Shown here in pieces: positions 10,087 through 48,376 of a stretch of 64,000 nt of DNA. The DNA lies in the IMG/VR virus record IMGVR_UViG_3300045988_144650; one strand, given 5' to 3'. Position numbers and translations under genes: made by a program. The notes under the pieces are model-generated. The model saw only the letters and a list, made by a program, of their open reading frames with translations. It did no database searches and was not told where the DNA came from. Source of the stretch: a virus. Each line of letters opens with the position of its first letter. Within the stretch, counting starts at the first letter, position 1.

Positions 10087-10575
10087 TCAATGGTTATCGT
10101 TATCGGTGTGCAGCGTTACGCCAGCACCGAAGATAAATTCCTTGATGTCAGTGTCGTACTCACGCAGGAAATCATCCAGAGTGCGATAATCTTCGCGACT
10201 CTGATGGTCAATATAACCATCTGAAGGATCGAGCCAAAGCCCCTTGCAGTTTGCATACTCTGCAACGACCTCATTGATACGGTCAAAATCACGCGTTTCA
10301 ATGAAGTTCTTAATATCCTCTTCGTTGGTTACATCATCATAGCACGACTCGTTACAGCCATTCAGGCAACGAGCCATTGTCAGCAGATAGCTCAATCTGG
10401 TTTCCTGATCGGTGTAGTCCCAGACCTCCCAACCAAACTCGCCAAACTCTGCATGGACATATCCGTCCTCGCTGACATACAAATAATTGGTGGACAACCC
10501 CTTACTATGGTCAACGGTCACAGAATGGGTGCTACTGGAGTTCGTTTCAAAAACTCCTCTGCGAATTTGCTTCAT
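10087..10575 (-). CDS. Member 1 of a three-paralog family with the invariant N-terminus MKQIRRGVFETNSSSTHS. Function unknown.
   Basis: The first 18 aa are near-identical to those of ORFs 25190-25486 and 26868-27380. The remainder diverges. Confidence 0.5.
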   Translation of the reverse strand: MKQIRRGVFETNSSSTHSVTVDHSKGLSTNYLYVSEDGYVHAEFGEFGWEVWDYTDQETRLSYLLTMARCLNGCNESCYDDVTNEEDIKNFIETRDFDRINEVVAEYANCKGLWLDPSDGYIDHQSREDYRTLDDFLREYDTDIKEFIFGAGVTLHTDNDNH

Positions 10576-13668: not shown

Positions 13669-14529
13669 TCACAGCCACCGCTCAACATAGTCGCGGTCTT
13701 GTGTGAAAATCGGAGGCTCCTTGTCGATAATCCATTTGCGTCTGGAAACCGTGATGGTCTTACCGGGATTTTTCGGGTCAGGCATATTGGTTTCCTCAGC
13801 TTGCCTATAGCAGCAAGAACCTCTCTTGCAATCCACGGGGAAATCGTTCCAGTTGATACCATGTACCTGCCACAGCATCTCCTGAATCATGTTTGTGGTC
13901 TTCTTATGAAGCTGATTAGCGCTGAAATACGCTTGTCCAACAGCCTCAATACTGTTCCTGGTGGCATCCTGCTGTCGCCAAATCAAGCAGTTGCAAACTT
14001 CATCTTTGGGAACTGAGAATGCACGAGAATCAAAAAGAGCACCCTTATTCAGCGCCCTCTTCAAAGTTTCTGCGTATTTGTTCAGTTCCTTTTTGATCTC
14101 AGGATCTTCGCCATACATACCACTCAGTACATCTTCCCGATTAAAATAATCATCAATGTTCTGATAGAGCGCCTTGTTAAAAGCCAGGGTTGCCAGCGAT
14201 GCTGAGATGCTGCACATCTTCTGGAGGTTATATCCAAACCACGCATCGGTTGTGATGGTCGCGTAGTCCGTCAAAACCAAAGTGATTTCGTCAGACTGTG
14301 TGTAGCCAAATACACAACCCTGAATATTGGCGCAGAGACTTTGCATGGTCTGTTGCATGGTTTTCATCAAGATAGAATCAAAAGGCTTTTTCATGCCCTT
14401 TGTAAAGGTGTGAAACGCCTTGCCGTCAATGCGGATCACAACTGGGACTCTGCGTGTCAGATAGCTACGAGAAATATTTTCATAGCTCTCTTTCATACGG
14501 TCACCCAAAGAGTCCTTCTTATTGCTCAT
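13669..14529 (-). CDS. Thg1-like protein (tRNA-His guanylyltransferase / 3'-5' polymerase family).
   Basis: VVIRIDGKAFHTFTKGMKKPFD...YTQSDEITLVL matches the Thg1 catalytic core (RIDGRxFHxF...KPxD...QSDEIS). Confidence 0.7.
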   Translation of the reverse strand: MSNKKDSLGDRMKESYENISRSYLTRRVPVVIRIDGKAFHTFTKGMKKPFDSILMKTMQQTMQSLCANIQGCVFGYTQSDEITLVLTDYATITTDAWFGYNLQKMCSISASLATLAFNKALYQNIDDYFNREDVLSGMYGEDPEIKKELNKYAETLKRALNKGALFDSRAFSVPKDEVCNCLIWRQQDATRNSIEAVGQAYFSANQLHKKTTNMIQEMLWQVHGINWNDFPVDCKRGSCCYRQAEETNMPDPKNPGKTITVSRRKWIIDKEPPIFTQDRDYVERWL

Positions 14530-15871
14530 CGCTGCACCATCCTTTCATAATCAAATGTTTAATGATTGCGGGGCGCTCGTTTTCAAGGTTACCACTGATG
14601 ACAGCATCAAGAACCTCGTTTAGAATTCGCCCAACATCTTTACCCTCTTTTACATCGCAGAGGTTCATAATGTCATACCCGTCAATGACCAGATCCTTCA
14701 GCTTAAAACATTGGTTCTGCTCAATGATTTCGCTTGCCATCATGCCAAGAGCGACACATCTGTCAATGCGAGACTCTTGCGTATCTTTTCTGTGAGCCAG
14801 AATATCTGCCATGCGAATATCAAGTAGCCGCATGAACTGCTTTTCACCGACTTTATTGAGCCATCTACGAACTGTTTTGGGGGTAGGCTCAATAACTGCA
14901 TCGTGATACAGCACCAGTTCAAGAATGTCGTCTCGCGATTTGTTATCAAAACGAAGTCTTGTTAGGACTTTTTCTGCAAGGTCATGGCTGAAAACCCCGT
15001 GACCGTAGAAGTGCCCACCATTGTGATCTTCTGTATAACAGCATGGTTTACCAATGTCGTGAAGCAGAAGTGATACATTTACCACCGGATCTGTGGCGTC
15101 GTAGTTTGCAACCGCATGAGCAATATGATCGTAAATCGTAAACTCATGGAATCTGTTGTTCTGGTCAAACCCAATGCAAGGCTTAAGTTCGGGGATAATC
15201 GTTGCCATCACATCGCTATATTCGAGCAGGATATTAAGAATACCCTTGCCGGCCAGCATCTTGCATAGTTCTGACTGGATGCGCTCTGCAGCAATGTTCA
15301 TCAACCTATCTTTGTTTTGGTGGATGGATCTTGCTGTTTCTTCAGCAATAGAAAAACCATAGACAGATGCAAATCGCATTGCTCTGAGGATACGCAGCGC
15401 ATCCTCTCCAAACCTATCGTCTGGATTTCCAACACAAGAAATCATGCCGCGTTCCAAATCTTCTTTGCCACCAAAAGGATCAATCAGGCCATTGTGGTTG
15501 TATGCCATTGCGTTAATGGTGAAGTCTCTGCGAGCCAGATCTTCGACCACATCCGTTACGAATCTTACGGTATCGGGGTGGCGGTTGTCTGAGTATTCAC
15601 CATCCACTCGGAATGTAGTGACCTCATACTGTCCATCGTCCATTACAATGGTTACAGTGCCGTGCTTCAGCCCTGTTTCGATCACACGCTTGTCACAAAA
15701 ACTGTATAGAATTTGTGACGGAGAAGCAGATGTACACACATCCCAATCCTTAGGCTCGACGCCAAGCAGACTGTCTCTTACACAGCCACCAACCACATAT
15801 GCGTCATATCCTGCCTGCTGTAGAGTATGGATAATAACTTGGGCGCCATGAGGAATATTGATATTACTCAT
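14519..15871 (-). CDS. cca: CCA-adding enzyme (class II tRNA nucleotidyltransferase with HD domain).
   Basis: GGCVRDSLLG...DWD head motif, RDFTINAMA, RILRAMRF and a downstream HD motif LLLHDIGK. Confidence 0.85.
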   Translation of the reverse strand: MSNINIPHGAQVIIHTLQQAGYDAYVVGGCVRDSLLGVEPKDWDVCTSASPSQILYSFCDKRVIETGLKHGTVTIVMDDGQYEVTTFRVDGEYSDNRHPDTVRFVTDVVEDLARRDFTINAMAYNHNGLIDPFGGKEDLERGMISCVGNPDDRFGEDALRILRAMRFASVYGFSIAEETARSIHQNKDRLMNIAAERIQSELCKMLAGKGILNILLEYSDVMATIIPELKPCIGFDQNNRFHEFTIYDHIAHAVANYDATDPVVNVSLLLHDIGKPCCYTEDHNGGHFYGHGVFSHDLAEKVLTRLRFDNKSRDDILELVLYHDAVIEPTPKTVRRWLNKVGEKQFMRLLDIRMADILAHRKDTQESRIDRCVALGMMASEIIEQNQCFKLKDLVIDGYDIMNLCDVKEGKDVGRILNEVLDAVISGNLENERPAIIKHLIMKGWCSDEQ

Positions 15872-16886
15872 TGATCGCCCTCCTGTTCACTTCCACCACG
15901 AACTCTTCAACGCGCTTCATATTAGGTGTTACCGGCAGGTCAGTGTTTTCCTTGGCGTACTTCAAACGCTTCTCGTAGTCGTTCACCAAGTCAAAGAATT
16001 CCTGTCTATATGAACCGTCTTCTCTCTGGAATTTGCCATTACGAATACTCAGTAAAAACTCCCGATCTCCGTAACGGTAGGTGTTGATCTCACCCTTTTC
16101 CAGAATGTCAAGGCACATCATGTACAGACGGATCAGGTGCATGGCGTGCTTGTTGAGATGGTTGTCGTCCTTTTTACGATTTCGATGATTCAGCTTTTCA
16201 TAGTTGCCAATGACATTGGAAAGCGTATTTATCATCACGCTGAAATCTCTTGCGGGGAATTTGTCGATGTGAATGTTGCAAAAGACCTCTCGATCCAAAT
16301 CATCGCGTGGACTTTCATCTGTGAACAGGGTAATGCCGCCACTATCCATCACAGAATAGCGGTCTGCAAAAGCCTTGAAAGAACGCTCCATTGCGCTTCG
16401 AATGTGTTCTTCGGTATCCGCCTGACACATTTTGTCTCTTGCCAGAGCATTCTGCAAACGGCGTAGTTGCTGCGTTGCATACCCGCCAAAAGAATTAACT
16501 GCTTTCTGAGAAAGGAAGAGATCGCGGTTGTCAATCATCATCTGTCCAGCGTCAGAGATGTAAAAATAATGCTCTGGCTTGCAGCCGAGCATCTCAATGG
16601 TGTTAGGGTTGCAGTTAAGCAAAAGACCAATCAGTTTATTAAACCCGTAGATCGTGGTATCAGTCTGCGTGTGTACGACCTGCTCAAAATTCGTGAGGCC
16701 GAGGATATCGCTTTTGCTGTTCATCGCACACCCTCGAATATCAACATCTGAGGTTTCGATGTTCGTGCCGTAGGCGTAACTACCGCCCAGCGTCAGAAAC
16801 ATGATGCGACCTTTGAGATGTGGGTTGGTTCGCAGAAAATCATATTCTTCGCTTGCCATCATCTCTTTGATTTGTTCAATCGTCAT
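15864..16886 (-). CDS. Pol-beta superfamily nucleotidyltransferase, RNA-repair-associated type.
   Basis: GGSYAYGTNIETSDVDIRG is the GS...D.D nucleotidyltransferase signature. The gene is co-operonic with the CCA enzyme and the Thg1-like gene. Confidence 0.55.
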   Translation of the reverse strand: MTIEQIKEMMASEEYDFLRTNPHLKGRIMFLTLGGSYAYGTNIETSDVDIRGCAMNSKSDILGLTNFEQVVHTQTDTTIYGFNKLIGLLLNCNPNTIEMLGCKPEHYFYISDAGQMMIDNRDLFLSQKAVNSFGGYATQQLRRLQNALARDKMCQADTEEHIRSAMERSFKAFADRYSVMDSGGITLFTDESPRDDLDREVFCNIHIDKFPARDFSVMINTLSNVIGNYEKLNHRNRKKDDNHLNKHAMHLIRLYMMCLDILEKGEINTYRYGDREFLLSIRNGKFQREDGSYRQEFFDLVNDYEKRLKYAKENTDLPVTPNMKRVEEFVVEVNRRAINE

Positions 16887-25189: not shown

Positions 25190-25486
25190 TTAACCGTCTC
25201 TTCCGTAGGTGCCAAAGGCAACCATCTTATCACCACTCGGCGTAGTAAAGCGATGGGAATAAACATCAAGTGAGTACCATCTGTTATCGCCGAGATTTTC
25301 GTAGGTGCAATACTGACCGTCTTCACCCTCAGTGAGGATAGAGGATTTCGGAACCAGCTTTTCGCCCCAACTGTCATACATCAGCTCACCGCGCTTAAAC
25401 TTCTCATACTCGTCTTCGGTGCAAATGGTAATGCTATGAGTGGAGCTGCTGTTCGTTTCGAACACGCTGCGTCGAACTTGCTTCAT
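25190..25486 (-). CDS. Member 2 of the conserved-N-terminus paralog family (MKQVRRSVFETNSSSTHS).
   Basis: Shares the 18-aa N-terminus with the other two paralogs. It lies 7 bp upstream of the radical SAM gene and 6 bp downstream of RtcB. Confidence 0.5.
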   Translation of the reverse strand: MKQVRRSVFETNSSSTHSITICTEDEYEKFKRGELMYDSWGEKLVPKSSILTEGEDGQYCTYENLGDNRWYSLDVYSHRFTTPSGDKMVAFGTYGRDG

Positions 25487-25491
25487 TTTCT

Positions 25492-26700
25492 CTACCTCTC
25501 TTCTTCGCCGGCTTTGAAATTATAGATCGGCTTAATAACCGAAATAATCTTTGCCGTCGGCTCAATATTGTCGACAATGTCTTCCATATTCTTGTATGCC
25601 ATAGGGCACTCATCAAGAGTGCTTTGACCTACAGATGTCGTATAAATTCCACTCATCTGCTTTTTGAACTCAGAAACTGTAAATGTCTGCTTTGCCGCAC
25701 TTCTGCTCATCAATCGACCTGCTCCATGAGGTGCAGAATAGTTCCAATCTTCATTACCCTTACCAATACAGATTAGACTTCCATCTCTCATGTTGATCGG
25801 GATCAGAAGTTTTTCTTCGTTCTGTGCAGAAACAGCTCCCTTTCGCAGAATCATATTATCCAAATCAATATAGTTATGAATTGTTGTAAATTGTTCAACA
25901 ACATGGAACCCCATGTTCTTTACAATAATATCCATCATAGCTTGCCTATTTAATTCGGCAAACTGCTGTGCAATTTGCATATCGTGCAAATATTGCTCGA
26001 ACAACTCACCCTCTACATAGGCTAATGCTTTAGGGATGGATGACTGCTTAGTCTTCATCTGTTTCAAAACGGTTTGAATTTCCTTTTGGCGACCGTCTTT
26101 TTTTAATCTCTGGACAACCTCATCAATTTCATCTTTACTGTATGAGGTTAATGATTTATAAGCAGCATCCTGATAATAATTAGCTATTTCCAACCCAAGA
26201 TGTCTGCTTCCAGAATGGACGACAATATAAATATTTCCATCATCGTCTTTATTTGCTTCAATAAAATGATTACCACCACCGAGTGTTCCGATGCTGTTAT
26301 AGGCGCGATCGGTATTAACTTTGTCTGCACAAAACAGTTTTGACAAATCGATACGATCAGAAAACTTATGTGGTCTCTTATGAATTTCAAACCCAGATGG
26401 AATACTTGATCGAATTACCTTGTCCAACTTTTGTGGTTCAATATGTGTCTCTTTCAGCCGGATGGTTTCCATTCCGCATCCAATATCAACCCCTACAAGA
26501 TTGGGGCATATCTTGTCCTTGATAGTCATTGTGGTTCCAATTGTACACCCTGCACCAGCATGAATGTCGGGCATCATTCGAACTCTGCTTCCCTCCATAT
26601 AGGGTTGATTCAGCAAATTTATCACCTGAGAGATAGATTCGTTGTCGACCACATCAGTAAATACTTTTGCAATGCCGTATTTTCCGCTCAACTCAAACAT
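25492..26700 (-). CDS. rtcB: RtcB-family RNA ligase (3'-phosphate/5'-OH).
   Basis: DIHAGAGCTIG, GGGNHF and HGAGR motifs. Confidence 0.85.
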   Translation of the reverse strand: MFELSGKYGIAKVFTDVVDNESISQVINLLNQPYMEGSRVRMMPDIHAGAGCTIGTTMTIKDKICPNLVGVDIGCGMETIRLKETHIEPQKLDKVIRSSIPSGFEIHKRPHKFSDRIDLSKLFCADKVNTDRAYNSIGTLGGGNHFIEANKDDDGNIYIVVHSGSRHLGLEIANYYQDAAYKSLTSYSKDEIDEVVQRLKKDGRQKEIQTVLKQMKTKQSSIPKALAYVEGELFEQYLHDMQIAQQFAELNRQAMMDIIVKNMGFHVVEQFTTIHNYIDLDNMILRKGAVSAQNEEKLLIPINMRDGSLICIGKGNEDWNYSAPHGAGRLMSRSAAKQTFTVSEFKKQMSGIYTTSVGQSTLDECPMAYKNMEDIVDNIEPTAKIISVIKPIYNFKAGEEER

Positions 26701-26867: not shown

Positions 26868-27380
26868 TTAATTTCCTTTGTAATACTCTTCGTGAGGATA
26901 AAGTGCATGGATATCTACATCCATATCACTATTATCGTTTCCGGTGAGTACAAAACTGTCTTCAGAGAAGAGATATCGCAAAAGGCGCCCCTTGTTACTT
27001 GTGGTCTTGTCCACAAACCTTTGGTGGTCATCTTCGCCGCAGTGGTCTACGCTTGCATTCACCACATAAGAACTGCTTCCGTATTTGTGGTACACCGCTT
27101 CGTCGAACTCGCACTCGACACCAATACTATCAAGCGTTTCCATAATAAACGCCATGACATCTTGTGCTTTTTCTCTGCTGTAAAGACTCAGAAAACTGGC
27201 GTAAAGATATGCTGCCTTTTCTTCAGGGGTGTCAAGTCGATCAAAACCCCAACCAAAATCTTCACAACGGAAGACGAGTTTGTCAGGGTAAGAAAGTTCT
27301 GTGTTGCGATTAGTTGCAATACAGATACTGTGGGTACTGCTGGAGTTTGTTTCAAAAACACCGCGCCGTTCCTGTCTCAT
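26868..27380 (-). CDS. Member 3 of the conserved-N-terminus paralog family (MRQERRGVFETNSSSTHS).
   Basis: The likely start is the internal ATG preceded by AGGAGA, which makes the conserved motif the exact N-terminus. Confidence 0.5.
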   Translation of the reverse strand: MRQERRGVFETNSSSTHSICIATNRNTELSYPDKLVFRCEDFGWGFDRLDTPEEKAAYLYASFLSLYSREKAQDVMAFIMETLDSIGVECEFDEAVYHKYGSSSYVVNASVDHCGEDDHQRFVDKTTSNKGRLLRYLFSEDSFVLTGNDNSDMDVDIHALYPHEEYYKGN

Positions 27381-27453
27381 CGGGTTTCTCCTCTCGTTCG
27401 TATTTGAAAAGAATTCGTAATCCATTATAGATCTCTTTAGTGTTGAAGAGAGA

Positions 27454-27609
27454 TTATAATGCAGAAGAACACACGAAGTGATCTCCGCACGATCCTTTAG
27501 GATCGAAGCAGATCACGAGTGTGAAAAGTAACAAAACCTTACTTCGATTTACAATACGAAGCGACTGCCTCTATGTATGATTGTGTATGGCAGACCATGT
27601 GCATTATAA
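27454..27609 (-). ncRNA. Family-1 structured element, short copy D.
   Basis: Terminal inverted repeats TTATAATGCA and TGCATTATAA flank SL1 (CTGCC/GGCAG) and the conserved SL2 CTTCG-ATTTACAATA-CGAAG. Confidence 0.4.
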
Positions 27610-27707
27610 ATTCTTTTCGGTTGTTTATCGTTCGCAACCTGAATAAAGTGCTTTTGGATCTATAGAGATAAATTCCTGGAAAACCCCGTTTTCCTGGAAT
27701 TTAGCGC

Positions 27708-27815
27708 TATTGATACAAAACATCTTTATTTACAACGGGGTATGGGGTTTACCCCAGATAAGCTTCTCAAACCTTTACTTCGATTTACAATACGAAGCCA
27801 CCCTATGTATCAAAG
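27708..27815 (-). ncRNA. Family-1 structured element, short copy E.
   Basis: a1-like CTTTGATAC and a2-like GTATCAA with the conserved SL2 CTTCG-ATTTACAATA-CGAAG. Confidence 0.35.
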
Positions 27816-27848
27816 AAATGGGTAAATGTTCGTTGCAAACGCAAAATA

Positions 27849-28443
27849 TTACTCGTGGAAGTGGAACATAACCTCTTCCATTTTGCCAGGTCTTAAGGCC
27901 GAAACATAAATCTTATCGAAAGCCCATGTTCCAACCTCGGGATCGTCTCCCCGGTAATCGCCACCGCCCTGACCGTTGCCGATACTGGTGAGCAGAGGCA
28001 GAGGATTGATACACCAACCCTCTTTGTCTTTGTTTTCTGCCACATACTTTTCCATGTCGATGTAGCAATTTCTTGTGATGTTCACAATGAAGCAATCCGC
28101 CTCATCATTGGAAAGCTTGTACTGCGGCAGCTTTCTGTCAATCGGCGTGATAACCTCTTTTCCATCACTCCAGAGAGTATTGTAGAGCCGCATGAAATCC
28201 TTGCGGTCTGTGATAAAAGCATCGCTGAAGCAACACTCATCATCAACTACGCTGTCAGCATAATCGCCGACCCACGCCAGTCGCTGAGGAGTGCCGTCAA
28301 GGTTCTGAAGAACTGCGTTAACAAAATCATTTCCAACCCAAGAATGTTCCATGAGCTTCAGACCGTTGCCGTAATCGTGAGAATAGGCAGTCTGTTTGGT
28401 CCCGTCATCTGCAATCAAGAGTGGCTTGTAATACTGACCCATA
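27849..28443 (-). CDS. Hypothetical protein with a Gly-rich GNGQGGGDY motif.
   Basis: The real start is probably ATG at 28443 after GAGGAAGAAAGG. The track start at 28532 lies inside tRNA-Leu. Confidence 0.45.
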
Positions 28444-28482
28444 GTGAAACCTACCTTTCTTCCTCGCTTTTGAAAATCGTAA

Positions 28483-28569
28483 TGGTACGGATAGTGGGAC
28501 TTGAACCCACACATCATTGCTGACATTAGCACCTGAAGCTAACGCGTCTGCCAATTCCGCCATATCCGC
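28483..28569 (-). tRNA. tRNA-Leu (anticodon CAG), type II, CCA encoded.
   Basis: Manual fold: acceptor GCGGATA, anticodon loop TTCAGGT, long variable arm, T-arm GTGGG-TTCAAGT-CCCAC, 3' ACCA. Confidence 0.7.
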
Positions 28570-28742
28570 ATATTTCTTTGGTCGGCTTCCCGCTTAGATT
28601 GTCACATCGTCTACTTGGGAGTAAAGGTCTCGTTCGCAAACAACCGTGTATACCCGATTGCTCCGCAGTTTTCAGCGGACATTTTCATTCTCTGTGTGGT
28701 AAGCCGATAATCGCACACATCATCTGGGAGCTACCCAGCCAC

Positions 28743-28833
28743 TGGCGGAGCAGATAGGACTTGAACCTACACACCCTTTCGGGCTACTCACGGTTTAGCA
28801 AACCGCTGCCTTACCAATTAGGCTTACTGCTCC
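28743..28833 (-). tRNA. tRNA-Ser (anticodon GCU), type II.
   Basis: Acceptor GGAGCAG, anticodon loop TTGCTAA, long variable arm, T-loop TTCAAGT, 3' GCCA. Confidence 0.7.
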
Positions 28834-28837
28834 ATAT

Positions 28838-28913
28838 TGGAGCTGGTGGACGGATTCGAACCCCCGACCTACTGATTACAAATCAGTTGCTCTACCGACT
28901 GAGCTACACCAGC
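28838..28913 (-). tRNA. tRNA-Thr (anticodon UGU).
   Basis: Canonical D-arm AGCTCAGTCGGTAGAGC, anticodon loop TTTGTAA, T-arm GGGGG-TTCGAAT-CCGTC, 3' TCCA. Confidence 0.8.
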
Positions 28914-29527
28914 ATCTCTTTATAGGGTTTTTCGCGCTTCTGCAGATTTCCACGCCTTGTCCTTACCGTCTATCCCTATTGCCACATGGGATCACAGACC
29001 CTAAACACTTCTGCTCTATGCCGGTTGTGTTCTGATACCGGAAAACATTCTGGGGACTTTATTTCACCTTGTTGCTCCAGCCCTCAAGGGTAACTCGGCA
29101 AGTGGCTTGCCTATTTGGATTTTGGTGCCATCATCTCAGCCATACACTCCGGCCTAAACCTAAGTTTGCCAGAACCTCACCGATTGCTCCTATGTATGCC
29201 GTCCTCGCCTCTGACTGAAATGATGTGCCGACACCTTCCATACCGTCTCACTTGCAAAATAAAACAAACTACGAACGGGGTGTGGTAAGCACATACCACC
29301 CAAACCTCTGCTTAGTCCCGCCGGTTCTGGTTTACGACATGGTTTGGTGCTCATGCCCTTGAGCTATTAGGCTATTTAACTATCTCTCACCGGCTTGATT
29401 TGCTTTTGTTAAGACGGTGCCAGAGCACGCTGCTCATATCCCGTTATCTTCCGCCCATCGTAGTCGATGACCCAGCCACTATATATCATTTCAAGTGGGC
29501 TTTTCCCATACCGTCTAAAGCGTATGG

Positions 29528-29637
29528 CTGGTGGAGAGGGATGGATTCGAACCACCGAAGCTTAATTGACCACACGGCGCCACAAGTCAAAAAGCGGAGA
29601 TTTACAGTCCCCGACTTTGGCCACTTGTCTACCTCTC
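29528..29637 (-). tRNA. tRNA-Tyr-like (anticodon GUA), atypically long at 110 nt with a ~39-nt variable arm.
   Basis: Acceptor GGAGAGG/CCTCTCC, anticodon stem-loop GGGGA-CTGTAAA-TCTCC, T-arm GGTGG-TTCGAAT-CCATC, 3' ACCA. The variable region GCTTTTTGACTTGTGGCGCCGTGTGGTCAATTAAGCTTC forms an extended hairpin. Confidence 0.55.
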
Positions 29638-29655
29638 CATATTGGTAAACTGGTC

Positions 29656-30468
29656 TTATTCCCAGTTTGTCGTAACACGACCATCTGGATGAATAATAAT
29701 ATTGGAATACCCATCCTGATAATCATTATGTTGCTGTTGCCACATATCTCCGAGTGTTACCCTGGCGTGCTTGCCAGCATAATCAAAAGTTGCATACACA
29801 AAGAAGTCGCCAATACGAAATGTGTGAAGATCAACTTCGTGATCGTTTTGTAATTCATTCCAAATATCTACCGAGTAGTCTTTTCGTTCAAGGCCACTAA
29901 GAAACCGAAAAGAAAAGGCATCTGCATCCATCTTCATGTAATCTTTAATGAATGCCAATGTTGGGGTTTCAACCACTGTTTGGACTGTACACCCAGGAAA
30001 CTTACTTGGATTTGGATGAATAAACTCGTTACAGGACAGATTGATATGTGCCAAACCATTTAATTCTGTGCTGAAACCAGAAGTATTTATTGAGCAAAAG
30101 ACACCGTTGCTGTAACTCTGATATGTTTCAACGATTTTTGCAATGTGTTTTGGATATAGACCGGGTTCTCCGCCAGTGATAGTAAGCCTTCCATTCGGAT
30201 GTTCTTTTAACACACGCTTTAGCGCCTCAACCTGGAGCGGAAAATTATTGTTGCCGGACATTGGGTGCTGCCTTTCCAAGCAAAACGGACAGCTAAACGG
30301 ACATTCCTGTGTGGTAATCAGTTGGATATTGATTCGATAGTAAAGAGGCCGACCAAGTGATGTTTTGATTAACCTGTCTCTTAGCCTATATTGCAGATCA
30401 TTATTCATTTCATTCCTTATTTCGTCGTAAGAACCAATGAACGGAATGAAGTTCAACTTGCTACTCAT
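29656..30468 (-). CDS. Radical SAM enzyme, second copy, small.
   Basis: CPFSCPFC is a Cx3Cx2C cluster. ITGGEPGLYP SAM-binding motif present. Confidence 0.7.
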   Translation of the reverse strand: MSSKLNFIPFIGSYDEIRNEMNNDLQYRLRDRLIKTSLGRPLYYRINIQLITTQECPFSCPFCLERQHPMSGNNNFPLQVEALKRVLKEHPNGRLTITGGEPGLYPKHIAKIVETYQSYSNGVFCSINTSGFSTELNGLAHINLSCNEFIHPNPSKFPGCTVQTVVETPTLAFIKDYMKMDADAFSFRFLSGLERKDYSVDIWNELQNDHEVDLHTFRIGDFFVYATFDYAGKHARVTLGDMWQQQHNDYQDGYSNIIIHPDGRVTTNWE

Positions 30469-30493
30469 CTAAATCAACCTCCTTTGCTGTTAG

Positions 30494-30569
30494 TGGTGGA
30501 GATGGTCGGGATCGAACCGGCGACCTCCTGCTTGCAAGGCAGGCGCTCTCCCAACTGAGCTACATCCCC
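30494..30569 (-). tRNA. tRNA-Ala (anticodon UGC).
   Basis: GGGGATGTAGCTCAGTTGGGAGAGC..., G3:U70 pair, anticodon loop CTTGCAA, T-arm with TTCGATC, 3' ACCA. Confidence 0.8.
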
Positions 30570-33179: not shown

Positions 33180-33863
33180 CTACACACCTCCGAGCGGGAG
33201 AACCCTACGATAAAGAGCTGTGTGTCTATCATCAATGTCTAAGTCGACATGATAGTGACCAAAATACCAATGCTTAAACCTGCAATTTTCCTCTACAAAC
33301 TGCAGAAAACTGGTGACCGCGTCGTTCTCATACCAACTTGCAATTTTGGCCTGTATGCTTTTGGATGCACAATGCGTAACTATGTAATCAACACACCAGT
33401 TGTGCTTTTCGAGCGTTTCAACAGCGTGTTCGAACTCTGCTTTGCTCGGGATTTCTTCTTCCCACCAAGATATATTTGGCTTTCTCAAATGCTTGTCATG
33501 AGATGATGCCCCGCCCATGCAGAACACCTTAGCTCCATCAATTTCAAACACCTCGCCACGCATCAAATGAAACAAGCTTGGCTGAATTTGGTGAACTGAC
33601 CCGCCATACTGATTTACAATGGGGAACTCTGCGAGCATTCGGTGGTTTTCATGGTTGCCATCCACAAAAAGAGTGGTGAATGATTTTTCTTCGTACCACT
33701 TCTGCCAGTATCGGTCACATTTCGATCCGTCCCAAACACAACCAAAATCCCCGCATACAATTAGGGAATCGTTTTTGCTCATGGACTTTTGTTGAGGGAA
33801 GTTTCTCATTGCAAGCTTATGAATGTCGATATCTCCATGAGTATCGCCAGTGATATAAACCAT
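33180..33863 (-). CDS. Calcineurin-like metallophosphoesterase.
   Basis: MVYITGDTHGD...GDF...GNHE...GHYH motifs. Confidence 0.7.
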   Translation of the reverse strand: MVYITGDTHGDIDIHKLAMRNFPQQKSMSKNDSLIVCGDFGCVWDGSKCDRYWQKWYEEKSFTTLFVDGNHENHRMLAEFPIVNQYGGSVHQIQPSLFHLMRGEVFEIDGAKVFCMGGASSHDKHLRKPNISWWEEEIPSKAEFEHAVETLEKHNWCVDYIVTHCASKSIQAKIASWYENDAVTSFLQFVEENCRFKHWYFGHYHVDLDIDDRHTALYRRVLPLGGV

Positions 33864-33889
33864 CCGTTCACCCCTTTCCTTTTCGTTTC

Positions 33890-34218
33890 ATCTGTAATCT
33901 ACAAGTACACCCGTCTTCTTGAGGAAGCTCTGGAGGGACTCCTCGTCGAGAGCTGAGGCTTCGTGAAGCGTGAGTTCGGGATTTCGCATCGGGTCGGTGA
34001 GCGAGAAAACCCTTGTAGTTACAGGGGTTTTCGAGTGTTTCCGAGTGAGGAAAATTTATTTATTTCCTGACCCTGCGAGCAGTGTCATCTCTTGCGCCGG
34101 GCGAATTCGCTGGAGGCGCCTGCCGCAGCGGCGTGCCCCTGGTATTTCCCCCCGGCCATTCGTAACTCCGATTTACAATACGGAGCATTAACTGAAACAG
34201 TTAATAATGCATTACAGA
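33890..34218 (-). ncRNA. Family-1 structured element, long copy B (about 329 nt, retron-ncRNA-like architecture).
   Basis: Minus-strand a1 ATCTGTAAT immediately followed by G, then the conserved CATTA-SL1-TGC-SL2(CTCCG-TATTGTAAAT-CGGAG)-TTACGAATGG module, a variable GC-rich ~230-nt body, and a2 ATTACAGAT 27 nt upstream of the next gene start. Confidence 0.45.
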
Positions 34219-34233
34219 TGATATTTTCTGGAT

Positions 34234-34788
34234 TTATCTCCAGTGAATTAGATACAAACTGTATTCCTCAGACTCAAGATCCTCGGCGAGTCTGAAGCCG
34301 ATTGCTTCATACTGTGCCCAAATCGCAGACCAGTCGATATAGTCCGTGATTTCGTCTTTGCTGATAAAGTCGAGGATTTCCTTGGTGATACCTGTGTCGA
34401 AAGGAACGCCAAGTTCGGTAGCTATGTAACAGGCGGCGAGTTCTTCGTTACCCATTTTCCAAGTGACCTCGGAAAGATCTTCAAACATGAAGTCATTTTC
34501 TTTGATGCGGCGGACAAATTCTTCGTCTTCAAGTTCTCCATCAACGGCATCCATAATCAGCGCAAGAAGTTCAGCCGTCATACCGGGATTCTCGCTGTTG
34601 ATGTCGTCAATAACTTCATTCAACTCCCAAACATCCATCGTTTGGATACCGGGAATAGACGGCGTACTGTCGATGATGACATACTCGTTTTGGCGATTCA
34701 GTTCAGAGCGAATATTAGATGGGATCGTGACAGTCTTATCCGCGCAACCGTCATCCCAGTCCTGCAGTTCAAGTTCCAGTTTAATCAT
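34234..34788 (-). CDS. Hypothetical acidic protein.
   Basis: 184-aa ORF preceded by AGGTGATGG. Confidence 0.45.
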   Translation of the reverse strand: MIKLELELQDWDDGCADKTVTIPSNIRSELNRQNEYVIIDSTPSIPGIQTMDVWELNEVIDDINSENPGMTAELLALIMDAVDGELEDEEFVRRIKENDFMFEDLSEVTWKMGNEELAACYIATELGVPFDTGITKEILDFISKDEITDYIDWSAIWAQYEAIGFRLAEDLESEEYSLYLIHWR

Positions 34789-34820
34789 TTGCCATCACCT
34801 CTTATTGTTTTGTTTGGTTT

Positions 34821-35157
34821 CTTTGTAATCATTACATATATATCCTGATTCCCTTCAGTGCGATCATCGATGGGATGCCAATCCCAGTTCTGTCGTCATC
34901 TGATGTGATTTGGACTTCTTGCAGTTGGGAAACCACCTAATTCCGAGGTCTTAGTTGGTGTTTTGCACGGAATTATTTATTTAGTCTTGGTTCAACCGCC
35001 GGAGACTGGGTGCCTCTTGAGGTGTTAACGCGTTGACGGCCGGCGGAGCTGCGGGCGTCACCAGTGGTGGGCTATGTGTTTCCTCCCGACCATTCGTTAC
35101 TTTGATTGACAATACAAAGTGCTACTTGCCAAAGACAAACAGCTATGCATTACAAAG
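34821..35157 (-). ncRNA. Family-1 structured element, long copy C (about 337 nt).
   Basis: a1 CTTTGTAAT-G and a2 ATTACAAAG carry compensatory changes relative to copies A and B. SL2 is CTTTG-TATTGTCAAT-CAAAG. The conserved TAACGAATGG block is present. Confidence 0.45.
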
Positions 35158-35166
35158 AAATTTGGT

Positions 35167-35361
35167 TTAGAATATTGCTTGTTCGTACTGTGCTTGGGTT
35201 ATTTCGCCGTTCTTGCAAAGAGCGTCAATCCAGCACGACCACTCAAACTGAACCTTACAGTAGTCGTCCTGACGCGCTCTCAGGTAGGCTTTATAGTCAC
35301 CGCCGAACGCTTCGTCGATGAATCTTCTTCTCAGGGTTTTTCGTCTTTGGCGTCTATACAT
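35167..35361 (-). CDS. Small basic protein.
   Basis: 64-aa ORF (MYRRQRRKTLRRR...). Coding status is uncertain. Confidence 0.3.
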   Translation of the reverse strand: MYRRQRRKTLRRRFIDEAFGGDYKAYLRARQDDYCKVQFEWSCWIDALCKNGEITQAQYEQAIF

Positions 35362-36050
35362 TATCCGTTGTCAACCTCCTCGGCAAAGAAAGTTTCGTTC
35401 ATATATGCCAGAACACGGTCGGCATATCCACTCGTGCCCGGGCTACCAGTGTTATAGCAGGTAAGGGCAGACTCGACTGACCCGTACTTTTCTATCAATT
35501 CGGCAAGCAAATCGCATCCGACTCTGAAGTTTGAAAGAGGATCGGAAAGGTCTGTCACACCAAGCCGCTCCATTCTTTCCTGGTGCCAACGAGGCTGAAC
35601 CTGCATATACCCGATGCTGTTTCCATTGTCGCCATTTACATTCCTGTATGTGGACTCACGGAAAATAACCGCCAAAGCAAGCTCATAAGGGCAGCCTGTT
35701 TCTTCACAAGCTGCCCATACAAGTTCCTGCAATTCATATTCAAGGGAAATATTTTCGTAGTATCGAAATGTCTCTTCCGGTTCCGGTTCTGGGGTGGGCT
35801 CTGAAACTAACATGGTTTCGCGTGGAATATACACCGGTGGAACAACCATCGGTTCAAGTTTTAATGGAATAGTTTCGTATGTATCGCTGATAGCAGGAGT
35901 TGGGATTTCCGGCTCAGCATCTGCAGCCGGATTTGAAAGGCCACATAAAACCACGGTTACGAATGCCAGAAAAAGCAGCATTGCGATGATATGCGGAAAC
36001 CGTCTGTGAGAACGGCGCCGTCTTCGTCTTTTCTGATACAAGGGTAACAC
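35361..36050 (-). CDS. Lytic transglycosylase (SLT domain) with an N-terminal membrane anchor.
   Basis: ELALAVIFRESTYR...GYMQV matches the catalytic E-S and GLMQ-like motifs of the SLT domain. A hydrophobic helix lies near the N-terminus. Confidence 0.75.
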   Translation of the reverse strand: MLPLYQKRRRRRRSHRRFPHIIAMLLFLAFVTVVLCGLSNPAADAEPEIPTPAISDTYETIPLKLEPMVVPPVYIPRETMLVSEPTPEPEPEETFRYYENISLEYELQELVWAACEETGCPYELALAVIFRESTYRNVNGDNGNSIGYMQVQPRWHQERMERLGVTDLSDPLSNFRVGCDLLAELIEKYGSVESALTCYNTGSPGTSGYADRVLAYMNETFFAEEVDNG

Positions 36051-36075
36051 TCCTCTCTTGTGACCGATGCTGAAA

Positions 36076-37221
36076 CTACTGGTTGAGATCCTCGCTCATG
36101 CTTTTCATAACATCGGTGTGGAACTTCTCATTGTTGTACTTGATTACGCTATCTACATACTCTTTTTCGACCATGCTGTAATAGTTGACCAAACCACGCA
36201 GAACCTGTACATCGTGCAGATCCCAATGGCGACCATTCTGCCGGTCGAGAATGTAGTTGCAAATCATTGCCCGCAAGCGCTGTTTGTTCTTATAACCAAT
36301 GGTGATCTCATTATCCTTATTGAGCATCACACCGAGGTTCCAATTACTTCCAGCGCGTGAGCCATAGCGCGTCTTTTCGTCTTTGATCTTAAAAGGAGCA
36401 CCAAACTCTGCGAGGGTAGAATTGATAAAGCCGATGATTTCATCCTTATCAAAACCCTTACGGCTTGAAAAGAGAGAGTCATCGGCATATCTGGTATATA
36501 CATAATGATTTCCATTGAAGTCACGCAGGCAATTGTTGATACGATGGTCAATGGGAATCATCATCAGATTTGTGAGCATAGGGGAAATAGGTGTTCCCTG
36601 CGGGAGACCACCGTTCAGGAAACACAGATCCAACGCTTTTTCCAAAGCATCAAATCCGCGCTGAGATTTTACGATCTCGCTAAATGGAAATACTTTGGAA
36701 AGCATAGACATCAGGAACTTCGGAGTTGTGCTGCCAAAGAAGTCAGAGAAGTCGGTCTTGAGGAACCAATGACTCTCATTCTTCTGATGACGCTTTACCG
36801 CGTCGATGGTAGATCTTCCGGGAACATAAGCAAATGCGCTGGTATGATACAGCGCAAACATCTGGGTTTCAAAAATCGTTTTCAGATTTCTGAGCGCATT
36901 CATCAGCGCTGGCTGCGGCGCATTGATCTCACGCAAGCCACCGGACTTCTTAGGGATATAGAACTTATCGTAGAGGTCGCTGCGCTTTGCCTCGTAAAGT
37001 TTAGCGTTCTGCTTGCAAAACTCTTCCAAGGTTACGACCATTGCATCAATATCAAAACGCTCAAGGAACTTGGGGTTCAGAACTTTGGAAAAGTAAGTTC
37101 TTGTGTTGGTCTCATTGGGGTTGACCATGTTGGCGAGATTGACATTCCCCGAAATAATTTCATCAAATGTGATCTGATGGAAAATCGGAGACTGCATCAG
37201 CGTAATGTAAGGCACTTCCAA
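36076..37221 (-). CDS. Reverse transcriptase, retron-type.
   Basis: RT motifs: IPKKSGGLREINAP (1/2), AYVPGRS, FLKTDFSDFFGS (A), GLPQGTPISPMLTNL (B'), YTRYADD (C), and a downstream KT....NLGVML resembling the retron VTG region. Start follows AAAGGAGG. Confidence 0.75.
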   Translation of the reverse strand: MEVPYITLMQSPIFHQITFDEIISGNVNLANMVNPNETNTRTYFSKVLNPKFLERFDIDAMVVTLEEFCKQNAKLYEAKRSDLYDKFYIPKKSGGLREINAPQPALMNALRNLKTIFETQMFALYHTSAFAYVPGRSTIDAVKRHQKNESHWFLKTDFSDFFGSTTPKFLMSMLSKVFPFSEIVKSQRGFDALEKALDLCFLNGGLPQGTPISPMLTNLMMIPIDHRINNCLRDFNGNHYVYTRYADDSLFSSRKGFDKDEIIGFINSTLAEFGAPFKIKDEKTRYGSRAGSNWNLGVMLNKDNEITIGYKNKQRLRAMICNYILDRQNGRHWDLHDVQVLRGLVNYYSMVEKEYVDSVIKYNNEKFHTDVMKSMSEDLNQ

Positions 37222-37242
37222 ACCTCCTTTTTCATTATTCGT

Positions 37243-37569
37243 ATCTGTAATCTACATACTCTGTGATGAGATGACCAGATCAGCTCAGGATACTCGTAGA
37301 TCTTCAGATTCCTGGATTCGGACATCTGATGGCTATGAAGTAACGGTGAACTCCTGGTTGTGCAGGTAATGAGTCTTGGATTTCCTGTGGTTCCTTAAAG
37401 TTTTCTTCAGGAGACACTGATGAAACTCTTGACTTTTGCTGTATAACCTGCGATGCTGCGACCGAGTCGCTGCAGCGTTTCTGGGTAGCCGGGTATTTCC
37501 CGTCCACCATTCGTAACTTTGATTTACAATACAAAGCACTTCCTATTCGGGAAGTAATGCATTACAGAT
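37243..37569 (-). ncRNA. Family-1 structured element, long copy A (about 327 nt), directly 5' of the RT gene. Candidate retron msr-msd ncRNA.
   Basis: a1 ATCTGTAAT-G at the 5' end (minus strand). SL1 is CTTCC-CGAATA-GGAAG and SL2 is CTTTG-TATTGTAAAT-CAAAG, followed by TTACGAATGG. a2 ATTACAGAT lies 22 nt upstream of the RT start. Confidence 0.5.
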
Positions 37570-37574
37570 CTCGT

Positions 37575-38456
37575 TTACATCTTTTTCAGAATCGCAAAGA
37601 ACTCCTCTTCATCAATCTCGATGATCTCCTGTGGAGCACTGAGAACCTCATAGTACCCATCGCCGTCAGGCTCATCTGAGATTAGGATTTCAGGATTGAG
37701 TTTCAAAGCTGGGCGCACCCCCACACAATCGTCGCAAGCACAGGCACTGCCGACATCGCCATCGCGATTAACGCAACGCACATTGTACGAGCGGCCAGAG
37801 TTCGGGGAGCGCAGGTAGTAGTACCACTCCTCGTCTTCATATTCGGGCTTGTCATTATTGGGAGTATTTGCGTACAGTTCGGGAGAGAACAGGCAGGCTC
37901 TGTTTGCACCATCCGCAAACAAATCCCAAACCTCACCCTCCTGAATACGGTTCTCAGTTCCACCGCCCACATTGGTTCTGGAGGGCATGAAAACCTTAGC
38001 ATAAATGGTTTCATACTTTTCGCCACCAGTAGGAATATCCTTGGTAGGCAGCGCCGTTTTGATCTCGGACTCCTCAATGGCTTCGACTTCCCACTCCTCA
38101 AAGTAGTGCAGGAAACCAGGCTTGTGAACATAGCCGTAGCGACCATTGTACATCAGGCGATCCTCGGGAGCCGTGTCGTGTTCGTGTGTCGGGCGGAACC
38201 AGTCTGTCCCCTCAGCATTCAGAAACTGATGACTGTTACTTAAGGAGTAGCGGTTATTACCGTAACTCCTGCGGTATTCGTCGGGGTTATCGGGCTCTTT
38301 GGCATCGAACGCACACTGATCTTCCATAAACTCGGTCAAGATCGTGCCGTCGCGATGAGCCTTTACCCAGCAAATCTTATGCGGCATCTCACCGCTGACG
38401 CTATAAGCGCCGAATTTCAGTTTTGCCCCGATGGGCAGGTCTGCGATAGTAGGCAT
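37575..38456 (-). CDS. Hypothetical protein.
   Basis: 293-aa ORF with a Cys cluster CACDDC near the C-terminus. Confidence 0.45.
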   Translation of the reverse strand: MPTIADLPIGAKLKFGAYSVSGEMPHKICWVKAHRDGTILTEFMEDQCAFDAKEPDNPDEYRRSYGNNRYSLSNSHQFLNAEGTDWFRPTHEHDTAPEDRLMYNGRYGYVHKPGFLHYFEEWEVEAIEESEIKTALPTKDIPTGGEKYETIYAKVFMPSRTNVGGGTENRIQEGEVWDLFADGANRACLFSPELYANTPNNDKPEYEDEEWYYYLRSPNSGRSYNVRCVNRDGDVGSACACDDCVGVRPALKLNPEILISDEPDGDGYYEVLSAPQEIIEIDEEEFFAILKKM

Positions 38457-44051: not shown

Positions 44052-44293
44052 ACACCTCCCTCATGTTGTCAGCGCTGAACTGAAACACACCGTTGAGGAA
44101 AACCTCAATGTGCTCACGAACCCATCTGATTTCGTACATAAGATTTCCTCCTTTTCCTCTTTGGTGAGATGGCTCTTTTTCTGCGTTGAAAATACAGAGA
44201 TTCTTTTTAAGGGTGACACCCCGAAAACCCGCATGAACACGGGCTTTTCTTTTTATTTTGCGACCGGAGTCGTCGCAAAACCGTTTCGGTCTG

Positions 44294-44345
44294 CTCTGCA
44301 TTTACACGGGCTTGCAACCGTTTTGGAAACCCAAAGCTGCATTAG
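44294..44345. repeat. Family-2 two-hairpin element, copy 1.
   Basis: CTCTGCATTTACACGG-GCTTGCAA-CCGT-TTTGG-AAAC-CCAAA-GCTGCATTAG. It is followed on the minus strand by TTGCGA-17-TAAAAA and a hairpin. Confidence 0.45.
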
Positions 44346-45321: not shown

Positions 45322-45549
45322 GAAAACCCCTCTTGAGAACAGGTAAGCAGCCGATTCACAAGAGGGGAATTTCCCCCGCGTTCAGGTGTTAATGCGGGAT
45401 TGTTTAATCAATCATAAACTTTAATCATTTGGATAACACCTGCCCAAAGCAAGAGGTCAGCGCTAACCCCTCACTCTCCGCATTTCGGGAATCTTTTCGC
45501 ATACGGTACGCCGCGTCAAGGCTCGTCGCGGAAAACCCTGCCAGGGATG

Positions 45550-45621
45550 TGACATGAGCAAGACTCGAACTTGCGACACGCCGGTCATATCCGGTTGCTC
45601 TACCGACTGAGCTATCATGCC
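45550..45621 (-). tRNA. tRNA-like element or pseudo-tRNA, with no encoded CCA and a noncanonical anticodon arm.
   Basis: Canonical D-arm TAGCTCAGTCGGTAGAGC and T-arm GCAAG-TTCGAGT-CTTGC with acceptor GGCATGA/TCATGTC. The anticodon region CCGG-ATATGA-CCGG gives only a 4-bp stem and a 6-nt loop. Confidence 0.4.
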
Positions 45622-46510: not shown

Positions 46511-46544
46511 AATCGGATCGTTTTTCAATTCAAGACCCTGCCCA

Positions 46545-46599
46545 CTCTGCGTTTACACGGACTTGTGACCGTTTGCAAAACCTTTGCAAGTCGCATTAG
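46545..46599. repeat. Family-2 two-hairpin element, copy 2.
   Basis: CTCTGCGTTTACACGG-ACTTGTGA-CCGT-TTGCAAA-ACC-TTTGCAA-GTCGCATTAG. Confidence 0.45.
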
Positions 46600-47473: not shown

Positions 47474-48041
47474 AGTTCTTACTCCTTTATGGTTTATTTA
47501 TGGGCAAGCCCATAATGAAGCGCAGTAACCCTTGTGGAGCTACTGCGCTCGATATAGACTTGCGTAGCAAGGGCAAGCCCCTGCGCGCATAAACTTTTTG
47601 ATTGACAAATCATGCTCGCTCAAGTAATTCCCCTGGTCGCCTTACATCTGCGCTATACACCTCCTTGAAGCTTTCACGCATAACACCCAACTCTACCACG
47701 ATAGAGGCATCCTTGATACCTAAACCGCTTAACGGCTTTATCAAATGCTGCTCAGAAACCAGGCTGCATAAGTGAGCCAACACTTATTCACTTGCGCTTA
47801 TTCATATCGCTCAAAGGTCATAGTGACTATAACCTATTGCCGAGAACTCAATACTACCCGCGTTCAGTATCCGCGCACTCTGAACCTAACTTTCAGAATT
47901 TTTGGCTGACCTTCTCTTATGGCGGTTGAAGCCGCGCTCGTGGTAAGAGTACCCTTCTTTTGGTGGCAAAAGTACCCCTTGTGTATGCCCATCAAGGTGG
48001 CGCGTTGGATCGCTCAACCAAGTAAAAACCTGGTCGAACCA

Positions 48042-48099
48042 CTCTGCATTTATACGGGCTTGTGACCGTTCGCCGGAAACCTCCGGCAAGCTGCATTAG
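48042..48099. repeat. Family-2 two-hairpin element, copy 3.
   Basis: CTCTGCATTTATACGG-GCTTGTGA-CCGT-TCGCCGGA-AACC-TCCGGC-AAGCTGCATTAG. Confidence 0.45.
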
Positions 48100-48132: not shown

Positions 48133-48376
48133 CGTTTCGGTTGCCCCATATACACGCACACGGCTGTATGTCACCCTGTGCGGTGTGGCTGTCCGTTTCG
48201 GTTGCCCCATATACACGCACACGGCTGTATGTCACCCTGTGCGGTGTGGCTGTCCGTTTCGGTTGCCCCATATACACGCACACGGCTGTATGTCACCCTG
48301 TGCGGTGTGGCTGTCCGTTTCGGTTGCCCCATATACACGCACACGGCTGTATGTCACCCTGTGCGGTGTGGTCGCG
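48133..48376. repeat. Tandem direct repeats, 61-bp unit x 4 (3.9 copies), GC-rich.
   Basis: The unit CGTTTCGGTTGCCCCATATACACGCACACGGCTGTATGTCACCCTGTGCGGTGTGGCTGTC repeats exactly at 48133, 48194, 48255 and 48316, with a divergent last unit. A partial fifth copy (TACGCACACGGCTGTATGTCACCC) sits at 49368-49392. Confidence 0.8.

Follow-up and report, generated by a model that had tools for sequence, protein, structure and literature searches.

The intergenic gap at positions 27,381 to 27,848 of the IMG/VR virus record IMGVR_UViG_3300045988_144650 raises the question of what two short, tandem, structured repeats do in a phage genome. The record was analysed as a stretch of 64,000 nucleotides (nt), hereafter the window, and the gap lies between the open reading frames (ORFs) 27849-28532 and 26868-27380, upstream of the gene for RtcB. 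A preliminary description of the two repeats, named D and E, had placed them in one family with three longer copies (A, B and C) and had likened the body of the long copies to the msd part of retrons, an interpretation of D and E that is partly supported by the present analysis. The favoured explanation, held with a probability of roughly 0.6, is that D and E are compact paralogues of a multi-copy family of retron-type, msr-msd-like non-coding RNAs (ncRNAs) that an uncultured gut phage of ~100-135 kb encodes on its minus strand. Judged from sequence, they most likely act as extra templates or ligands for the reverse transcriptase (RT) of the phage, with multicopy single-stranded DNA (msDNA) as a putative product.

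The defining features of a retron RNA are complementary ends, a branching G and short stem-loops in the msr part, and an msd made of one long hairpin (PMC8632793). The functional strand of the elements is the minus strand, as it is for all genes around them, and folding of the minus-sense RNAs of D and E gave, in both the minimum free energy (MFE) and the centroid structures, a 10-bp closing helix between the two ends (a1 and a2), two stem-loops (SL1 and SL2) and a long hairpin beside a2 (Table 1). In these predicted structures the layout is that of a retron msr-msd RNA. The fold energies amount to -48.7 kcal/mol for D (z -4.45) and -61.7 kcal/mol for E (z -3.82), and these z-scores, together with the matches to the covariance model described below, show the two short tandem repeats to be real.

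Table 1. Coordinates of the elements, of their parts and of the genes referred to in the text.
Feature	Position	Strand	Description
Element E	27629-27841	-	213 nt: a1, G, SL1, SL2, small hairpin, long hairpin, CAG, a2; span of the a1/a2 search 213; MFE structure closes the ends
E a1	27832-27841	-	CGUUUGCAAC; followed by G27831, aligned to the invariant G of the family, candidate branching G
E a2	27629-27638	-	GUUGCGAACG; preceded by CAG; 10 bp with a1 including one G.U (an A.C mismatch on the other strand)
E SL1	27800-27823	-	ACCC-N16-GGGU; UACAUA on the 3' side of the loop
E SL2	27778-27797	-	CUUCG / bulged U / AUU-GUA-AAU / CGAAG
E long hairpin, msd-like	27642-27730	-	apex AAAUUCCAGGAAAAC-GGG-GUUUUCCAGGAAUUU at 27670-27702; inverted repeat of 89 nt, 79%; from the fold
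Element D	27454-27609	-	156 nt: a1, SL1, SL2, small hairpin, long hairpin, a2; fold closes the ends
D a1	27600-27609	-	UUAUAAUGCA; G27602 aligns with the invariant G but sits within the helix
D a2	27454-27463	-	UGCAUUAUAA; exact 10-bp pairing with a1
D SL1	27565-27593	-	CUGCC-N19-GGCAG; UACAUA on the 3' side of the loop
D SL2	27542-27561	-	same as E SL2
D long hairpin, msd-like	27470-27523	-	CACACUCGUGAUCU...AGAUCACUUCGUGUG, inner GAUCC-UAAA-GGAUC; ends 6 nt before a2; from the fold
Element A	33888-34221	-	334 nt, long form; a1 UCAUCUGUAAU / a2 AUUACAGAUGA; R1 68.8 bits
Element B	34818-35160	-	343 nt, long form; a1 UUUCUUUGUAAU / a2 AUUACAAAGAAA; R1 58.8 bits
Element C	37243-37569	-	327 nt, RT-adjacent copy; a1 AUCUGUAAU, G37560, a2 AUUACAGAU; R1 69.4 bits
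Retron-clade RT	36076-37215	-	likely start GVG... at 37215 after AAGGAGG; ORF as listed starts at 37221
RtcB	25492-26700
Metallophosphoesterase	33180-33863
CCA-adding enzyme	14519-15871
Terminase large subunit	60184-61926
Portal	61927-63438

Much of the preliminary description was borne out, although the limits and the make-up of E had to be redrawn. The limits of D were right, with exact inverted repeats TTATAATGCA at 27454-27463 and TGCATTATAA at 27600-27609 and the CTGCC-N19-GGCAG stem-loop between 27565 and 27593, and the 20-nt plus-strand hairpin CTTCG-ATTTACAATA-CGAAG was found in D (27542-27561) and in E (27778-27797). E had been drawn at 27708-27815. The covariance model R1, built only from copies upstream of the RT gene with D, E, A and B excluded, puts GUUUGCAACG-aa-CAUU of E (27840-27827) on the a1-G-CAUU of the family, and because the complement of this a1 lies at 27638-27629, E comprises 27629-27841 and is bounded by an end-to-end helix of its own. 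The hairpins previously placed between the two copies are parts of E, GGAAAAC..GUUUUCC being the tip of its long hairpin and GGTTG..CAACC overlapping its a2. D and E had also been taken to lack a body and to show that the 5' module exists without an msd-like part; neither view is supported, as both copies hold short bodies that fold as long hairpins, and each keeps a single such hairpin beside a2.

R1 recovered C, A, B, E and D in the window, where the next best match reached 10.7 bits. E was matched at 27756-27840 with 27.9 bits (E=8e-4), and D over SL1 and SL2 only, at 27530-27595. The five copies of the core motif reported for the window were all found on a single strand and coincide with the members of repeat family D2; allowing one mismatch, the core 12-mer has 6 matches in the window against 0.33 expected by chance, one of which is an unrelated minus-strand hit. 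Relatives of the SL2 hairpins of D and E stand at 34165, 35099 and 37516, all on the same strand, and the three stem variants were as described, namely CTTCG/CGAAG in D and E, CTCCG/CGGAG in A and CTTTG/CAAAG in B and C.

Relatives of the family were sought in 70 IMG/VR contigs encoding RT relatives of 47-83% identity. R1 found 193 copies in these 70 loci, all on the RT strand and usually 2-4 per locus (3 copies in 33 loci, 2 in 17, 4 in 9 and 5 in 1). Within 21 kb, most loci have one copy before the RT gene and typically one or two, in many cases as a tandem, immediately past it, with additional copies farther along. A copy lies directly upstream of the RT gene in about 60 of the 70 loci, and in about 50 of 69 IMG/VR loci exact inverted repeats of 8-12 nt bracket an element of 285-360 nt at this place, with a G always following the left arm. 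The sequence of these bracketing repeats varies from clade to clade (ATCTGTAAT, AACTGTAAC, ATCTGCAAT, GAATTGTAAC, CATAGCGAC and others).

Selection on the pairing of the stems, which had been proposed from five copies, proved far stronger than five copies could show. RNAalifold analysis of SL1 and SL2 in 20 diverse 5' modules from RT-upstream copies revealed compensatory changes in 13 of 15 pairs, so that covariation held once more homologues were aligned. Across 86 distinct sequences, 97.5% of cells were paired, compared with 31-44% when the partners were slid; double changes occurred in 419 cells against 110 in shuffles, and none of 500 shuffles reached the observed covariation score. SL2 consists of a lower stem of 5-6 bp, a one-base bulge, an upper stem of 3 bp and a triloop, and the alignment of distant relatives thus resolved what had been read as a 10-nt loop. 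At the ends, 112 of 122 distinct elements, but only 4 of 122 upstream controls, have an a1/a2 helix that spans 9 bp or more and stops precisely at the G. Each of 86 distinct sequences carries this invariant G immediately after a1, with N-A-U behind it. Together with the end pairing and the retron-clade RT encoded at 36076-37215, this G supports the earlier idea of a retron with an msd. A search of Rfam, including the retron msr family RF00170, gave no match even at E<=1 for 27300-27950 or 33800-37650, and only transfer RNAs (tRNAs) reached the gathering score.

The covarying ends also bear on whether the copies are mobile DNA of the kind of miniature inverted-repeat transposable elements. Short, repeated, intergenic units flanked by inverted repeats of 9-13 bp would fit such elements, but the repeats differ among the copies of one genome while remaining complementary within each copy, which is unexpected for the substrates of one transposase. 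Moreover, 193 of 193 copies are oriented as the RT gene, their synteny reaches down to RT identities of ~50%, no target-site duplications were seen, and G.U pairs interrupt the repeats, making this explanation very improbable. The G.U pairs favour the RNA sense: one lies in the a1/a2 helix of E, another closes SL2 in 74 of 86 sequences, and permitting G.U gives longer end helices than permitting A.C.

The loop of SL2 had been called identical in all copies, which is true of four of the five. The whole apex (bulge, 3-bp stem and triloop) is the same in A, C, D and E, whereas B, with ATTGACAATA, differs at one base of the triloop. Within each genome examined, all copies have a common SL2 apex and differ in their lower stems and a1/a2, and the apex varies between clades, that of the L010 type being CGCCAAAGGC. 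Such a pattern points to one common reader acting in trans, which would most simply be the RT.

Are D and E peculiar to this genome? In L002, L003, L004 and L178, whose RTs are 73-76% identical to that of the window, an E-type element followed in tandem by a D-type one occupies the corresponding site upstream of the ORF 26868-27380 homologue, and L001 has a single D-type element. The short copies of these five relatives keep an intact a1/a2, the G, SL1, SL2 and long, near-perfect hairpins, one of which in L002 has ~29 perfect bp, and the hairpin sequences are unrelated between phages. The more distant L010 clade, with an RT that is 55% identical, carries directly upstream of RtcB a D-like element whose long hairpin is A/U-rich. 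A pattern scan of viral contigs with GTATTGTAAATCNNAGT returned mostly single chance hits and was informative only for L178, L126, L141 and L168.

These relatives weigh heavily on the idea that D and E arose as duplicates of the RT-adjacent ncRNA and are now non-functional and in decay. The low R1 scores of D and E compared with the 59-69 bits of A-C and the atypical arrangement of a1 and the G in D would fit decay. However, the short pair is retained at the same position in four relatives, a1/a2 and SL2 are intact, near-perfect hairpins of unrelated sequence imply maintenance, and the class-specific UACAU(A) is kept in the SL1 loops of the window clade and of L010; pseudo-copies are accordingly improbable.

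The UACAU(A) motif occupies the 3' side of the SL1 loop in the D/E-type copies examined in the window clade (L001-L004 and L178) and in the D-like element of L010 (14260-14275), and it occurs in none of 143 long-class elements. In the window, the SL1 loops with UACAUA span 27570-27588 in D and 27804-27819 in E. About half of the long-class elements have a conserved (U)AUGUA-G ahead of a2, to which UACAUA is complementary, and UACAUA is the same sequence as the predicted 5' end of the long-class complementary DNA (cDNA). The loop of the short class and the UAUGUA template start of the long class might thus interact.

The protein expected to read these RNAs was compared with known RT classes. 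It matches RVT_1 of Pfam (1e-19), and in PADLOC its top 25 hits were all retron RT models, the best being RT_II-A (1e-48). Among NCBIfam models, retron_St85_RT scored 184.7 bits (2e-54), ahead of group II (3.5e-24) and Drt2 (7e-12), and the best match in PDB was the RT of retron Ec83 (2e-22). By these comparisons the protein belongs with the retron RTs and not with another class of prokaryotic RT. It keeps YADD and has ~70 extra N-terminal residues relative to retron RTs. No close relative was found among GenBank phages, where the only real homologue of the RT comes from an unannotated human-faecal contig; the RT family comprises thousands of metagenomic proteins and was seen only in uncultured gut phage contigs and in contigs of 95-135 kb mis-binned into metagenome-assembled genomes of many taxa. 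The gene upstream of C and the RT encodes a DUF6273 / Hoc-like surface-type protein.

Taken together, a pathway for D and E can be proposed. Both would be transcribed with the leftward genes, between ORF 27849-28532 and ORF 26868-27380, and each RNA would close on itself through its 10-bp a1/a2 helix and display two msr-like stem-loops. The shared SL2 could then be the handle by which the single phage RT recognises all copies in trans. Priming would be expected from the 2'-OH of the G after a1, namely G27831 in E and the aligned G27602 in D, and copying of the adjacent long hairpin by the RT would give short, hairpin, msDNA-like RNA-DNA hybrids.

Several observations weigh against this explanation. 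D and E lie 8.5-9.7 kb from the RT gene, with more than 10 genes and tRNAs in between, whereas known retron ncRNAs immediately adjoin their RT, and only copy C does so here. D is the less convincing of the pair, as it scores low with R1 (18.3 bits, E=0.06), its a1/a2 helix extends 3 bp beyond the aligned G, which is hence paired, it has no YAG of the kind that precedes a2 in most copies, and in longer context it shows competing folds. The score of the RT (184.7 bits) is below the NCBIfam retron cutoff of 235, and the protein has NLGVML where Ec83 has HVTGVTL, thus without the VTG of motif 7 present in most retron RTs (PMC8632793), and AVKRH where Ec83 has NAKIH (NAxxH). No retron effector was recognised by PADLOC among 10 neighbouring proteins, for which only a weak PDC-S10 match of the phosphoesterase and an E1-like ThiF were returned; ~25% of retrons are also without an effector (PMC8632793). 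Gene conversion could also yield shared SL2 apices within a genome. The family is retron-like, yet D and E do not adjoin the RT gene, the RT has no VTG and an effector is not recognisable.

The placement of the elements fits a different role as well. Each element takes up a gap between genes and lies on the coding strand, starting just after the upstream stop codon, and the long copies end ~25 nt before the next start codon, which would also suit cis-acting leader or intergenic structures for the processing, stability or translation of the next gene. The RT might then be a regulator that binds the elements without reverse transcription of D and E, an arrangement akin to the hybrid RNA (hyRNA) of type VI retrons. 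Synteny of the positions extends across clades, with copies standing ahead of the RT, the metallophosphoesterase and RtcB, and there is a precedent for retron RNA coupled to the translation of a downstream ORF (bioRxiv 10.1101/2025.10.22.683967). Nevertheless, no pairing between an element and a ribosome-binding site was seen, the Shine-Dalgarno sequence lies outside the a1/a2 helix, and in the E-D tandem E is not directly upstream of any gene. The invariant G after a1 and the conserved YAUGUAG, which stands just before a2 in most long copies, have no obvious regulatory role and resemble a priming site and a template start. A purely cis-acting function seems rather unlikely.

The comparison with Retron-Vpa2, the type VI example, is instructive in this respect (bioRxiv 10.1101/2025.10.22.683967). 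Its template RNA is continuous with the downstream coding sequence, and the elements here likewise abut the next gene. In contrast, its effector ORF is located inside the structured RNA and is translationally repressed, while the a1/a2 helix here closes before the ribosome-binding site, and the downstream genes are varied (RT, phosphoesterase, unknown ORFs and the RtcB operon), with neither a helix-turn-helix protein nor a small toxin found among them.

For D itself, an outer complementarity of 10 bp between 27405-27414 and 27610-27619 (GAAAAGAAUU / AAUUCUUUUC) encloses the element together with ~50 nt of the leader that follows it. The corresponding outer pairing of L001 appears to be the closing helix, and D may be able to close in two alternative ways. 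A possible masking of the ribosome-binding site was considered by folding D with its downstream leader, which gave only competing alternative folds and nothing interpretable.

Returning to the retron-type reading, the family falls into two classes, one RT-proximal and long, the other RtcB-proximal and short with a body that is essentially one hairpin. Bodies of the long class measure ~160-280 nt, are enriched in C (0.30 against a background of 0.215) and depleted in T (0.19 against 0.249), and are weakly structured. Those of A-C, 245 nt long, are likewise C-rich, T-poor and weakly structured, without a clear single long msd hairpin, and the bodies of D and E are closer to the textbook msd. No body cassettes common to copies or phages were found except in L003 and L004. 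A coding function of the bodies was considered and rejected, since the sense ORFs of 63-78 aa that exist occur in a T-poor composition in which stop codons are rare, and indels of 1-2 nt between near-identical phages break the frames. Promoter (TTGACA) and three-frame stop (TAAATAAATAA) motifs were also looked for and are present in just 4.5% and 5% of 154 distinct elements.

With motifs of the TTGAC type this rare, cassettes of a promoter and a terminator between genes gain little. Hairpins followed by U-rich runs do exist, one terminator-like site was scanned at 27491-27470, and TATAAT-like strings occur within the repeats of D. Sites from the consensus scan were, however, no more frequent than in shuffles, the promoter-like hits were all on the non-coding strand, and such a cassette would need neither a covarying end-to-end pairing over 150-370 nt nor an invariant G. 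Promoter-terminator cassettes hardly seem probable on this evidence.

The centres of long elements diverge far faster than the neighbouring genes, as observed in L010 (9737-9903, 11223-11400 and 11520-11753), in L013-L018 and L060, and in the window at 33962-34061 and 34909-35008 when compared with L075. In the L010 clade, third-codon positions of the RT are 90-98% identical, the body centres 63-92%, the 5' module 97-100% and the last ~55 nt 86-98%. The ratio of transitions to transversions is ~1:1 in the bodies compared with ~5:1 in the flanking genes of L010-clade phages, and no adenine bias was found among the body substitutions. Hypermutation, recombination or diversifying selection are possible causes.

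A broader and more tentative proposal, which we regard as possible but doubtful, is that of a multi-template retron. A widespread family of uncultured gut phages would use one retron-like RT, without effector and without VTG, on 2-5 templates of two classes. The first would be long templates close to the RT, their central 100-170 nt diverging at several times the pace of synonymous sites nearby, and the second short templates close to RtcB, such as D and E, that encode long DNA hairpins. During infection, what is made from them would serve as decoys in counter-defence or would regulate the adjoining tRNA-repair island, and would not be a sensor for abortive infection. Full-text literature searches turned up no account of a phage retron that has several ncRNAs. 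The setting in an island of tRNA-repair and tRNA genes and the lack of a recognisable toxic effector hint that a counter-defence or regulatory role is likelier than the part in abortive infection that retrons play in bacteria.

In bacteria, retrons are known as anti-phage systems in which one ncRNA and one RT are usually joined by a toxic effector. Like Retron-Eco1 (Ec86), Eco4 (Ec83) and Sen2 (St85), the family studied here has a1/a2 ends, a conserved G, the candidate branching G, at the 3' end of a1 and two msr-like stem-loops, as well as a single long hairpin beside a2 in D and E and one copy immediately upstream of a retron-matching RT. It differs from them in its carrier, a large and apparently virulent-type gut phage with terminase, portal and tRNAs in which an integrase-like gene is also present; in having 2-5 ncRNA copies per RT, some in tandem and some up to ~9-10 kb away; in the C-rich, T-poor and weakly structured bodies of 200-270 nt near the RT, where bacterial retrons have one hairpin; and in an RT with NLG for VTG, ~70 extra N-terminal residues and no recognisable effector.

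Other RT systems share less with it. In diversity-generating retroelements (template repeat RNA with spacer, RT and Avd), a structured ncRNA likewise lies between an upstream gene and a phage RT. This identity was rejected: sensitive blastn of each element against the window (word size 7) gave no pair of template and variable repeats, no adenine-specific substitution pattern was present, and the RT matches retron models rather than those of diversity-generating retroelements. DRT2 and other class 2 defence RTs resemble the proposed system in that a stand-alone RT, lacking a classical effector, makes cDNA from an ncRNA dedicated to it. Here, though, the RT is much closer to retron models than to Drt2 (2e-54 versus 7e-12), the a1-G-a2 geometry is that of a retron, and the bodies, with frames broken by indels, are not conserved as coding templates.

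The retron-like RT is a conserved component of a large gut-phage family and is accompanied by several dispersed and tandem template-like RNAs. If the RT uses these RNAs, phages would have co-opted retron chemistry for their own purposes, and there would be a natural case of a single retron RT that serves several templates in trans, of relevance to multiplexed genome editing with retrons. Compact RNAs of the D/E type (156-213 nt with a free hairpin cargo) would in that case be natural minimal scaffolds. The system offers a directly testable case made up of one RT and five defined RNAs, each with one candidate G for priming.

The genomic setting offers further observations. All genes between 22 and 46 kb are on the minus strand, and besides the genes of Table 1 the window encodes an exonuclease, a ThiF/E1-like protein, a flotillin-like protein and 6-7 tRNAs. 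A tRNA maintenance set, made up of the CCA-adding enzyme and a second nucleotidyltransferase (14519-16886), RtcB, the metallophosphoesterase and a tRNA cluster (28483-30569), is interleaved with the retron-like elements, and its density suggests pressure from host tRNA-cleaving defences. At 29532-29638 (minus strand), Rfam reports a tRNA of 107 nt (38.1 bits) without an ARAGORN call, which may carry an insertion or intron, the splicing/repair ligase RtcB being encoded by the same phage. A tRNA reported by ARAGORN at 45549-45621 (minus strand; Rfam tRNA, 50.6 bits) has an undetermined two-base anticodon ('at').

The gene downstream of D had been described as an RtcB-flanking paralog, which is correct only for its beginning. 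The first 23 aa of ORF 26868-27380 recur with 78% identity at 25418-25486 in the small ORF after RtcB (25190-25486), no paralogy extends beyond these 23 aa, and a weaker similarity was seen at 10384-10575 (37% over 68 aa). Between this gene and the 184-aa ORF that follows B, no paralogy was found.

Two other repeats were noticed outside the element family. A 61-nt unit is repeated in tandem at 48133-48432, with three perfect overlapping copies of 117 nt and one degenerate copy, and the GC skew changes sign at ~48-52 kb. The 35-nt motif CCACTCTGCRTTTAYACGGRCTTGYRACCGTT occurs three times (44291-44325, 46542-46576 and 48039-48073; 77-89% identical) and may be another intergenic regulatory repeat. 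Finally, a tyrosine-integrase-like gene (57758-58798; PHROG 1, 3e-37) adjoins the packaging genes; the phage may be temperate, though its relatives all appear as free contigs.

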